NCBI RefSeq assembly: GCF_000346485.2
Contig: NZ_KQ976354.1
Location: 5,780,824-5,812,823, forward strand
Length of the DNA stretch: 32,000 nucleotides
Direction: 5' to 3'
Source: Scytonema hofmannii PCC 7110
GTDB taxonomy: Bacteria > Cyanobacteriota > Cyanobacteriia > Cyanobacteriales > Nostocaceae
Of this stretch, positions 2,162-3,805 are shown piece after piece; positions within the stretch are counted from its first letter, which is position 1; each line of letters starts with the position of its first letter. The notes under the pieces were generated by a model. It did no database searches and was not told the DNA's origin. It worked only from the letters and a program-made list of their open reading frames with translations. A program made the translations under genes and the position numbers.

Positions 2162-3805
2162 TTATGACAAACCTTCCATACGCAAAAAATGCACCCGCCC
2201 CAAACTATCACCAACAGCGATTGTAAGCCCATCGAGTGCAACTGTACAACAAAACAAAGAATTGTCCCCTGCAAAAGTCACAATTATCTCTCTAGTTTCC
2301 AGATTCCAAACTTTGAGCGTGGAGTCATCGGACGCAGAAATCACGCGTTTGCCATCAGGAGTCAGCACCAGAGCATTAACCCTGGAGCTATGACCCGTGA
2401 GGGTGGACTCCAGGCTGCCCGTTTCCAGATTCCAGACTTTGAGCGTTTTGTCATATGACGCAGAAATCACGCGTTTGCCATCAGGAGTCAGCGCCAGAGC
2501 ATTAACCCAGTCGCTATGACCCGTGAGGGTGGACTCCAGGCTGCCCGTTTCCAGATTCCAGACTTTGAGCGTTTTGTCATCGGACGCAGAAATCACGCGT
2601 TTGCCATCAGGAGTCAGCGCCAGAGCATTAACCCAGGAGCTATGACCCGTGAGGGTGAGAGTGAGCAGTTGCCTTCGAGCGATCAAATTTTTAATCAAAG
2701 AGAAAACTCCTTTCCCCGTTTCCAGATTCCAGACTTTGAGCGTTTTGTCATATGACGCAGAAATCACGCGTTTGCCATCAGGAGTCAGCGCCAGAGCATT
2801 AACCCAGTCGCTATGACCCGTGAGGGTGGACTCCAGGCTGCCCGTTTCCAGATTCCAGACTTTGAGCGTTTTGTCATCGGACGCAGAAATCACGCGTTTG
2901 CCATCAGGAGTCAGCGCCAGAGCATTAACCCAGTCGCTATGACCCGTGAGGGTGGACTCCAGGCTGCCCGTTTCCAGATTCCAGACTTTGAGCGTTTTGT
3001 CATCGGACGCAGAAATCACGCGTTTGCCATCAGGAGTCAGCGCCAGAGCATTAACCCAGTCGCTATGACCCGTGAGGGTGGACTCCAGGCTGCCCGTTTC
3101 CAGATTCCAGACTTTGAGCGTTTTGTCATCGGACGCAGAAATCACGCGTTTGCCATCAGGAGTCAGCGCCAGAGCATTAACCCCGGAGCTATGACCCGTG
3201 AGGGTGGACTCCAGGCTGCCCGTTTCCAGATTCCAGACTTTGAGCGTTTTGTCATCGGACGCAGAAATCACGCGTTTGCCATCAGGAGTCAGCGCCAGAG
3301 CATTAACCCCGGAGCTATGACCCGTGAGGGTGCGGATGAGCCGCCCCCCAGGCGGTGTTAAGCTAGGGGTTAAAGGACGCAACCAAGGGTCTTTTTGCTG
3401 TTTTAGCATCCCTAGCAAAACCTGAATCTCAGGCGCTTCACATAACATCAAGCGCCCTAATAATTGTCCTGCTAATGGTGTTTTATCCTTACATAAAACA
3501 TGGGCTGATAATCGCAGTGCTCCTTGAATTAAGGTCAGTGCTTTTACCTTTTCGGTGTCATATTCTGGATTATTTATTGCATCTGGATCGGCATGAATCA
3601 GATCGTAGTCACGAATCAGTTCATCAATTCCATAGTCAGGATGGTGAGTTTTGTCTGCCAAAAAATGAAAATTGGTTAGAAATTGAAAATACTTCTCCAA
3701 ATGTCCGGGCTTATTTGACTTCACCAAATTTGGTAATAAGGCTCCCAAGCGAACTCTTTGGCTAGAAGCACTGGTTTTGGCTGGTTTCTTAAGTTGGTTC
3801 TTCAT
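2162..3805 (-). CDS. WD40-repeat sensor protein: helical arm plus 8 near-identical WD40 blades and 1 degenerate blade. This is the C-terminal half of a canonical NACHT-WD40 NLR-like protein
   Basis: Eight 42-aa units LTGHSxxVNALALTPDGKRVISAS(D/Y)DKTLKVWNLETGS. The N-terminal ~150 aa (FLTNFHFLADK...LRPLTPSLTPPGGRLIRTL) looks like the linker/arm found between NACHT and WD40 in cyanobacterial single-chain homologs. Confidence 0.9.
   Translation of the reverse strand: MKNQLKKPAKTSASSQRVRLGALLPNLVKSNKPGHLEKYFQFLTNFHFLADKTHHPDYGIDELIRDYDLIHADPDAINNPEYDTEKVKALTLIQGALRLSAHVLCKDKTPLAGQLLGRLMLCEAPEIQVLLGMLKQQKDPWLRPLTPSLTPPGGRLIRTLTGHSSGVNALALTPDGKRVISASDDKTLKVWNLETGSLESTLTGHSSGVNALALTPDGKRVISASDDKTLKVWNLETGSLESTLTGHSDWVNALALTPDGKRVISASDDKTLKVWNLETGSLESTLTGHSDWVNALALTPDGKRVISASDDKTLKVWNLETGSLESTLTGHSDWVNALALTPDGKRVISASYDKTLKVWNLETGKGVFSLIKNLIARRQLLTLTLTGHSSWVNALALTPDGKRVISASDDKTLKVWNLETGSLESTLTGHSDWVNALALTPDGKRVISASYDKTLKVWNLETGSLESTLTGHSSRVNALVLTPDGKRVISASDDSTLKVWNLETREIIVTFAGDNSLFCCTVALDGLTIAVGDSLGRVHFLRMEGLS
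2290..3345 (-). repeat. Tandem 126-bp (42-codon) near-identical WD40-coding repeats; one unit carries a 45-bp insertion
   Basis: The marker ATGACCCGTGAGGGTG recurs at ~2390, 2516, 2642, 2813, 2939, 3065, 3191 and 3317. Spacing is 126 bp, except one interval of 171 = 126 + 45. Confidence 0.95.

Follow-up and report, generated by a model that had tools for sequence, protein, structure and literature searches.

A 32,000-nucleotide stretch of the Scytonema hofmannii PCC 7110 genome (contig NZ_KQ976354.1, positions 5,780,824 to 5,812,823 of the forward strand; hereafter the window, in whose numbering positions are given unless a genome coordinate is named) contains three adjacent genes on its minus strand that form a compact cassette. 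Gene 1 encodes an NNH5 domain followed by a NACHT NTPase, gene 2 encodes a helical arm followed by a tandem array of nearly identical WD40 units, and gene 3, which starts after a 108-nt gap from gene 2 and is without an effector or sensor domain, encodes a bare STAND/NACHT-like NTPase; the gap between genes 1 and 2 is 9 nt. From the evidence presented below, we consider it probable that the three genes constitute an NLR-like (STAND/NACHT) conflict system of this filamentous cyanobacterium, in which the repeats in gene 2 encode a beta-propeller that senses the ligand. Feature coordinates are collected in Table 1; in what follows, P-numbers denote homologous proteins and L-numbers denote loci compared with the window.

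Tandem Repeats Finder reports a period of 126 bp at 2295-2657 (94% matches) and at 2715-3332 (98% matches, score 1180). The corresponding open reading frame (ORF), at 2162-3805 on the minus strand, encodes a protein of 547 amino acids (aa) with eight WD40 units of 126 bp or 42 aa, starting in translation at aa 160, 202, 244, 286, 328, 385, 427 and 469, and a degenerate ninth blade. Of the GH...WD signatures and the D-H-S/T-W tetrad that mark WD40 units, G3-H4, S22/S24, D26 and W32 are found in every unit, the Pfam WD40 model (PF00400) matches gene 2 over eight stretches (E = 3.4e-96), and an AlphaFold2 model of the gene 2 product contains nine strand sets; on these features the protein belongs to the WD40 beta-propeller class. 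A search of the 12.3-Mb genome for the 126-bp repeat found no other copy.

When the units are aligned as DNA, units 1-7 vary at only five of the 126 nucleotide columns (16, 17, 19, 72 and 73). Columns 16 and 17 lie in codon 6, which is TCC or GAC (S or D), and column 19 in codon 7, which is GGG or TGG (G or W) and in unit 8 AGG (R). Columns 72 and 73 lie in codons 24 and 25, which read TCC-GAT (S-D) or, in units 5 and 7, TCA-TAT (S-Y); the TCC/TCA alternation is the single synonymous difference among units 1-7. Units 1 and 2 are identical at the DNA level, as are units 3 and 4. Unit 8 has in addition A12V, K27S and two synonymous changes, and its last six codons differ (REIIVT), running into the degenerate ninth blade (aa 511-547). 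The median unit-to-unit identity is 0.93 for all eight units and 0.98 for the six canonical units, where a median blade-to-blade identity of at least 0.6-0.7 is the criterion for highly repetitive, or WRAP, propellers; the near absence of synonymous changes and the operon coupling to STAND NTPase genes likewise place the array in this class. A previous annotation made from the letters of the window (the sequence-only reading) had described eight near-identical 126-bp WD40 repeats, and this description is borne out by Tandem Repeats Finder, by translation and by the unit alignment. The residue pairs that it listed after the GHS motif of units 1-8 (SG, SG, DW, DW, DW, SW, DW and SR), the D/Y alternation at position 25 and the K-to-S change at position 27 of unit 8 are exact in translation, and its statement that variation is limited to a few codons is correct for units 1-7 but too narrow for unit 8.

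Table 1. Features of the cassette and of the transposon that surrounds it, in window coordinates.
Feature	Coordinates	Strand	Evidence
Gene 1: NNH5 + NACHT NTPase, 524 aa	3815-5389	-	Pfam NNH5, NACHT
TAG stop of gene 1 (3815-3817) and 9-nt spacer before the gene 2 ATG	3806-3817	-	Stop conserved in L027
Upstream non-coding region, probable promoter region, moves with the cassette	5390-5778	-	L027 identity block (875-5778)
Helical arm (HD2-like linker), gene 2 aa 1-159	3329-3805	-	AlphaFold2 helices; colinearity with fused homologues
WD40 unit array, gene 2 aa 160-510	2276-3328	-	Tandem Repeats Finder, translation, Pfam WD40, PDB 2YMU
WD40 unit u1	3203-3328	-	Unit alignment
WD40 unit u2	3077-3202	-	Unit alignment
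WD40 unit u3	2951-3076	-	Unit alignment
WD40 unit u4	2825-2950	-	Unit alignment
WD40 unit u5	2714-2824	-	Unit alignment
Long c-d loop motif KGVFSLIKNLIARRQLLTLT between u5 and u6	2654-2713	-	Homologous motif at same site in homologues
WD40 unit u6	2528-2653	-	Unit alignment
WD40 unit u7	2402-2527	-	Unit alignment
WD40 unit u8	2276-2401	-	Unit alignment
Degenerate terminal blade FAGDNSLFCCTVALDGLTIAVGDSLGRVHFLRMEGLS, gene 2 aa 511-547	2165-2275	-	Family-wide alignment consensus; AlphaFold2 strands
Gene 3: bare STAND/NACHT-like NTPase, 394 aa	869-2053	-	36% identical to gene 1 residues 150-499
tniQ, 3' part, type V-K CRISPR-associated transposon	3-440	+	Pfam TniQ
cas12k	17491-19428	+	NCBIfam V_Cas12k, E 9.1e-284
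CRISPR array, 13 CRISPR-DR15 repeats	20100-21085	+	CRISPR repeat search

We examined the positions of the variable residues in the AlphaFold2 model of the gene 2 product (41 homologues; predicted local distance difference test (pLDDT) 89.5, predicted template modelling score (pTM) 0.82). In unit 1, strands a, b, c and d are predicted at residues 167-172, 178-183, 187-192 and 198-203. The variable residues 165 and 166 lie in the d-a loop, immediately preceding strand a, and the b-c turn holds residue 184 and, in unit 8, also 186. The terminal blade is modelled with strands at 517-522, 528-533 and 538-544, and the arm with helices between residues 13 and 135 and a strand at 141-144, in which a conserved segment, WLRPLTPSLTPPGG, would supply the closing strand of the propeller. 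The sequence-based rule of Wu et al. 2012 assigns, from the fingerprint V-N-A-L, position 9 to R1, position 7 to R1-2 and position 25 to D-1; two of the three variable positions (7 and 25) are thus canonical top-face hotspots, and position 6 adjoins one.

The same positions vary across the family. Among 362 canonical units from homologous proteins, per-position entropy is highest, in descending order, at positions 25, 2, 7, 6 and 27 of the 42, and the chance that three given positions would all fall among the top four of 42 is about 4e-4. The window units vary at 6, 7 and 25, and additionally at 27 in unit 8, while position 9 is invariant. In the fungal NWD unit, positive selection has been found at positions 7, 9, 25 and 27, in the same two loops (Paoletti 2007, PMC1805685), so that positions 7, 25 and 27 of the window match three of the four positively selected NWD/HET-E positions; measured against the fungal pattern of diversification confined to top-face positions 7, 9, 25 and 27, the window array conforms. 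Together, the loop locations and the hotspot assignments R1-2 and D-1 support, in topological terms, the earlier proposal that the variable residues occupy predicted ligand-contact positions on the top face. The proposed likeness to fungal NWD/HET-E proteins stands as far as the coincidence of positions 7, 25 and 27 and the recent amplification or homogenisation are concerned, but this is a cyanobacterial system in which the sensor is a separate polypeptide.

The age of the array was assessed by comparison with L027, an orthologous cassette on a 96-kb contig of the draft assembly GCA_973417685.1 that forms a block of approximately 90% nucleotide identity with window positions 875-5778. In the arm, 44 of 477 nt differ between the two loci, including 21 synonymous codon differences in 159 codons. 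Set against this divergence of about 9%, the scant synonymous difference among the units indicates that the amplification or homogenisation of the array is far younger than the split from the L027 lineage. The L027 WD40 gene has only two units and the terminal blade (281 aa); its first unit is the counterpart of window unit 1 (12 differences) and its last that of window unit 8 (11 differences), and the replacements in these orthologous units concentrate at positions 2, 7, 25, 39 and 41. L027 also has the TCA-TAT tract found in units 5 and 7 and the TCC found at codon 27 of unit 8, and part of the variation within the array is therefore ancestral; differences at contact sites are as likely to be old ones that were retained as to be new mutations. 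No close orthologue was found among 60 related reference genomes, the best match being only 63% identical in the arm, and three Logan contigs from the same cluster as gene 1 (L031-L033) are without DNA similarity to the window.

These data bear on whether the differences among units reflect selection at all. Under a neutral young amplification, the few differences would be leftovers of older units rather than selected contacts, and the array would not form a re-shufflable recognition surface. The small number of nucleotide changes among units 1-7 (about six) and the partly ancestral origin just described are consistent with this explanation, and in the view of Pereira and Lupas 2022 (PMC9218822) such propellers are newly amplified and in many cases do not last long. 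We nevertheless consider it rather unlikely, since the retained differences fall exactly on the family-wide hypervariable hotspot positions, and the differences between the window and L027 in units 1 and 8 are also concentrated there, at positions 2, 7, 25, 39 and 41. A diversity-generating retroelement was also considered as the source of variation and rejected: the changes (T/G, C/A, G/T/A, C/A and G/T) are not adenine-specific. No reverse transcriptase match was found among the larger window ORFs that were scanned.

A second question is whether the array has been assembled correctly. Units that are 96-100% identical over 126 bp are prone to collapse in short-read assembly, and the L027 draft contig shows only two; were the window affected in this way, the true number or order of units would differ from the eight shown. 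Such an artefact is improbable, given that the contig holding the window is 11.6 Mb long, a size that implies a long-read assembly, and that the array spans only 1.05 kb, has a unique 60-nt segment and unit-specific codons as landmarks, and keeps an intact frame.

The 60-nt segment (2654-2713) interrupts the regular spacing of the array between units 5 and 6. It had been recorded as a 45-bp insertion, which is accurate as a net gain, the segment standing in for 15 nt (encoding SLEST). The sequence-only reading further suggested that the resulting 15 additional residues might be a recombination scar and might break the propeller, and neither suggestion is supported. In a scan of every fetched homologue for long stretches separating the WD motif from the following GH, we found the motif G[VF]F..I.NLI..RQ in the same strand c-d loop in five other proteins, from other genera: P0007 (GVFTVIGNLITGRQLFT), P0010 (GVFTFIWNLITGRQLFT), P0021 (GFFSFIRNLITGRQILT, in three copies), and P0023 and P0035 (both GFFKLLQNLIPAKQMFT); the corresponding window sequence is GVFSLIKNLIARRQLLT. 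P0021 and P0010 belong to the same three-gene cassette as gene 2. Conservation of the motif at the same loop in other genera argues that the segment is not a recombination scar, and in the AlphaFold2 model residues 369-382 form a low-confidence loop (pLDDT below 50) that connects strands c and d in blade 5, and the blades on either side are well predicted (pLDDT above 90). The 15-aa segment is thus an inherited variant with a long loop and is probably functional.

In these homologues two further units and the terminal blade follow the motif; in the window three units follow it, with an extra LT. WD40 propellers have their c-d loops on one face and their d-a and b-c loops on the other, and by this general topology the long loop would lie opposite the variable residues. 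The conserved amphipathic loop, usually located ahead of the final two units and terminal blade, may serve to attach the propeller to a partner. Neither a BLAST-type search nor blastn-short found a second copy of the 60-nt segment in the 12.3-Mb genome. We also considered whether the segment could be what is left of a lost WD unit after a frameshift: the +1 frame reads LKI*SLEG, and the local alignment to the unit is not significant (score 22 against 16.6 +/- 3.2 for shuffled sequences, with 43 of 500 shuffles reaching 22); the idea was dropped once the conserved motif was found in homologues. The 920-aa WD40 protein of Crinalium epipsammum PCC 9333 (L028, 6567-9329), which is also highly repetitive, has four segments of 22-26 aa (LPAWLTRIFKMLKPEF, ILPAWLTRIFKILTLKPELH) at the same c-d loop site; these are duplicated within a higher-order repeat and are unlike the window motif in sequence.

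The partners of the propeller have the hallmarks of NLR-like NTPases. Gene 1 matches NNH5 (E = 6.7e-50) and NACHT (36.7 bits against a cut-off of 26.7) in Pfam. It has the Walker A motif GDAGMGKS and the Walker B motif DALDE (residues 273-277, invariant in the alignment), which fits the NACHT signature D[GAS]hDE; by the rule for bNACHT proteins (Walker A and a NACHT-type Walker B, followed by a winged helix) gene 1 belongs with them. The best PDB folds for its AlphaFold2 model (pLDDT 86.4) are Apaf-1, CED-4 and Avs3; a fold search for NNH5, made with the whole gene 1 model, returned NTPase matches only. Two further NNH5-like domains in the genome (C1:8397742-8398143 and C3:204011-204412) are 44-45% identical to gene 1 residues 2-138, indicating that the domain is reused elsewhere in the genome.

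All close homologues come from filamentous cyanobacteria. The order NNH5-NACHT, arm-WD40, NTPase is found in seven loci: the window, its orthologue L027, L028 (Crinalium PCC 9333), L029 (Kamptonema formosum), L030 (Sphaerospermopsis), L034 (Nostoc) and L035 (a metagenome contig), with the third-gene NTPase present in each of the six other than the window. The cassette is conserved across genera, and in the other genomes it is found in unrelated chromosomal neighbourhoods. Among cassettes with one intact WD40 ORF, the arm-WD40 product ranges from 281 to 920 aa, and orthologous cassettes have between 3 and about 18 blades; the short ones may form propellers by oligomerisation, as isolated WRAP fragments do in vitro. 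In L035 (2961-6513), the WD40 gene is broken into ORFs of 284, 60, 775 and 62 aa, with a phage-type integrase upstream, and is an example of the disrupted propellers known from the literature.

Each pair of neighbouring genes is also found as a fusion. NACHT is fused to arm-WD40 in P0002 and P0003, with the arm colinear with their post-NACHT region, and P0004 and P0006 join arm-WD40 to the third-gene NTPase, their NTPase portion having 48% identity to gene 3 (E = 8e-108). The occurrence of both fusions is classical evidence that the three proteins act together. In P0004 and P0006, from Rivularia sp. and another cyanobacterium, the sensor is N-terminal to the NACHT-like module, an unusual domain order for an NLR. 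Residues 104-134 of gene 3, about 31 aa (HAKHTLREQELDTNVSLHSSFHSATEGSGH) located between its Walker A and Walker B regions, have no counterpart in the fused homologue P0004. Our limited literature search found no published description of the cassette or of the loop motif, and no experimentally tested cassette member was found in the literature searched.

The ORFs of genes 1 and 2 are in one frame, separated by a single TAG and 9 nt, and P0002, P0003 and P0017 are continuous through this junction. Such an arrangement could be produced by decay, in which an in-frame TAG inactivated a canonical single-chain NACHT-WD40 gene and an insertion broke its propeller, leaving a functionless relic; many disrupted WRAP propellers are noted in the literature, and the fragmented WD40 gene of L035 could be read in the same way. 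Several observations make this explanation extremely improbable. Among 91 NNH5-NACHT homologues, most are approximately 519-536 aa long and end at the stop point of the window gene. The TAG is conserved in L027, whose orthologous gene is 93% identical, despite the different frame of the next gene there. Separate genes are found in L028-L030 and L034, and also where the NACHT relative is a Trypsin-NACHT (L025) or a CHAT-NACHT (L024). Gene 2 itself is an intact ORF with its own ATG, in which the supposed insertion is a conserved motif.

Programmed read-through of the TAG, which would yield a rare NACHT-arm-WD40 fusion in addition to the free NACHT protein, is suggested by the in-frame arrangement of the window and of the Crinalium locus L028 and by the existence of fused homologues. 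Gene 2 is out of frame in L027, L029, L030, L025 and L024, so that the frame is kept in only two of seven loci, where one third would be expected by chance, and read-through in L027 would meet a TAA after eight codons. Conservation of the frame at no more than the chance rate argues against programmed read-through, which we consider very improbable. Both the nonsense-mutation and the read-through interpretations were rejected on the conserved stop and the non-conserved frame: on the comparison of homologues, the TAG is the family's normal stop codon and marks an ordinary gene boundary.

The cassette lies between tnsB-tnsC-tniQ on one side and cas12k with a CRISPR array on the other, and is thus cargo of a type V-K CRISPR-associated transposon. 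The genes tnsB and tnsC are immediately upstream of the window (genome C1:5778032-5781263; Mu-transpos_C and TniB/AAA_22 matches). The transposon appears complete, with tnsB, tnsC, tniQ, about 17 kb of cargo, cas12k and the CRISPR array. Its cargo is rich in defence genes; besides the NACHT cassette it includes a GmrSD/DUF262-like gene (6492-8363) and an NB-ARC-TPR gene (10194-12770). The latter contains 8.4 tandem 126-bp TPR units with 85% identity (11536-12589) and is a second STAND sensor with a 42-codon period in the cargo, far less homogenised than the WD40 array. Past the CRISPR array is an Ssp-type DNA phosphorothioation defence locus (22486-31998) with SspB/DUF4007 (22486-23340), SspE (25119-27383; PADLOC 1254 bits), and cysteine desulfurase, DndB-like and PAPS-reductase-like genes. 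Between tniQ and the end of gene 3 is a GC-rich, apparently structured stretch (690-840), with a hairpin and T-run near 805-835 on the plus strand after it; no Rfam match to the stretch was found at the gathering threshold.

Taken together, these results are best explained by a conflict system in which gene 1 would provide an NNH5 effector or adaptor and a NACHT NTPase switch, gene 2 the arm and the sensor propeller, and gene 3 a bare NTPase. If the system works like Apaf-1, bNACHT and Avs proteins, a foreign protein, probably from a phage, would bind the top face of the propeller; binding would relieve inhibition and release the nucleoside triphosphate-dependent oligomerisation of the NACHT partners, and oligomerisation would in turn activate NNH5, leading to growth arrest, abortive infection or cell death. 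Shifts in unit number and in the hotspot residues may retune the specificity of such a sensor.

Several points weigh against this interpretation and require that it be read cautiously. The immune function is argued from homology and genomic context, and PADLOC gives only weak Avs1b/STAND matches. The mapping of variable residues to the top face uses secondary structure and a sequence rule and is topological rather than geometric. Nine blades per chain are unusual, and the model best matches eight-bladed PDB propellers (TMt 0.85), so that the ring size is uncertain; WRAP blades are able to form both 8- and 9-bladed rings. The contrast between eight units in the window and two in L027 may be a real difference or a collapse in the draft assembly. 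The substitutions are too few for the ratio of non-synonymous to synonymous changes (dN/dS) to separate diversifying selection from retained older differences, and the TCA-TAT tract common to L027 suggests ancestral variation rather than new mutation.

If the ligand-sensing interpretation is correct, the locus offers a clean example of a bacterial NLR-like receptor that retunes its sensor by amplifying one blade and keeping differences only at contact residues, the same solution as in fungi. The split three-gene layout, with fused pairs elsewhere, would make it a tractable system for examining how a separate sensor controls NACHT oligomerisation, and carriage on a type V-K transposon shows that such receptors travel as defence cargo. 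A more specific and tentative idea is that the cassette is a three-component 'split NLR', in which an exchangeable, free-standing propeller is common to two NACHT NTPases and the module is spread by a CRISPR-guided transposon. Current concepts are left unchanged, and the value of the locus is as a well-defined candidate for experiments.

Recently amplified WD40 sensors of this kind have already been described, and the window is a well-preserved example rather than a new principle. WRAP propellers are recently amplified WD40 propellers of cyanobacterial STAND ATPases, for which participation in the innate immunity of prokaryotes and rapid turnover have been suggested (Pereira and Lupas 2022, PMC9218822; for the WRAP/2YMU class see also Chaudhuri 2008; Dunin-Horkawicz 2014; Afanasieva 2019, PMC6805158). 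The closest PDB match to gene 2 is 2YMU, the highly repetitive propeller of Nostoc punctiforme Npun_R6612 (E = 2.7e-181) and the prototype of the WRAP class. Both are cyanobacterial, have near-identical 42-aa units with almost no synonymous differences, and are associated with a STAND NTPase and placed in an operon with a second STAND gene. They differ in that the propeller of Npun_R6612 is the C-terminus of the STAND protein, whereas in the window the propeller and arm are a separate polypeptide encoded between two NTPase genes; in blade number (14 against 8+1); and in the N-terminal domain of the partner (TIR against NNH5). The conserved long c-d loop in one unit and the carriage on a CRISPR-associated transposon are specific to the window in this comparison. 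The array also resembles the Highly-Repetitive WD40 proteins, in which only the predicted hotspot sites depart from high conservation (Hu et al. 2017, PMC5587647), as they do in the window units, whose median identity of 0.93-0.98 compares with a threshold of 0.7; that class is purely descriptive and is silent on the three-gene cassette and the loop motif.

The resemblance to HET-E, HET-D and HET-R of Podospora lies in the combination of NACHT with WD40, in high internal conservation and in variation at positions 7, 25 and 27. The fungal architecture, a single chain with a HET or other fungal effector and several paralogous arrays that exchange units, is not that of the window, which is bacterial, has no HET domain and has its sensor on a separate chain; repeat-induced point mutation (RIP) is irrelevant here. 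There being no paralogous arrays in the genome, concerted evolution between genes, unlike in fungal NWD proteins, cannot operate. The bNACHT (Kibby et al.) and Avs (Gao et al.) proteins that have been tested are, unlike the cassette, single chains with mostly TPR/helical or short C-terminal sensors, and none has its architecture. With these proteins and with Apaf-1 the cassette shares the NACHT motifs, the Apaf-1/CED-4/Avs3 fold match and the logic of effector, NTPase and sensor, with the arm and WD40 propeller placed after the NTPase as in Apaf-1.

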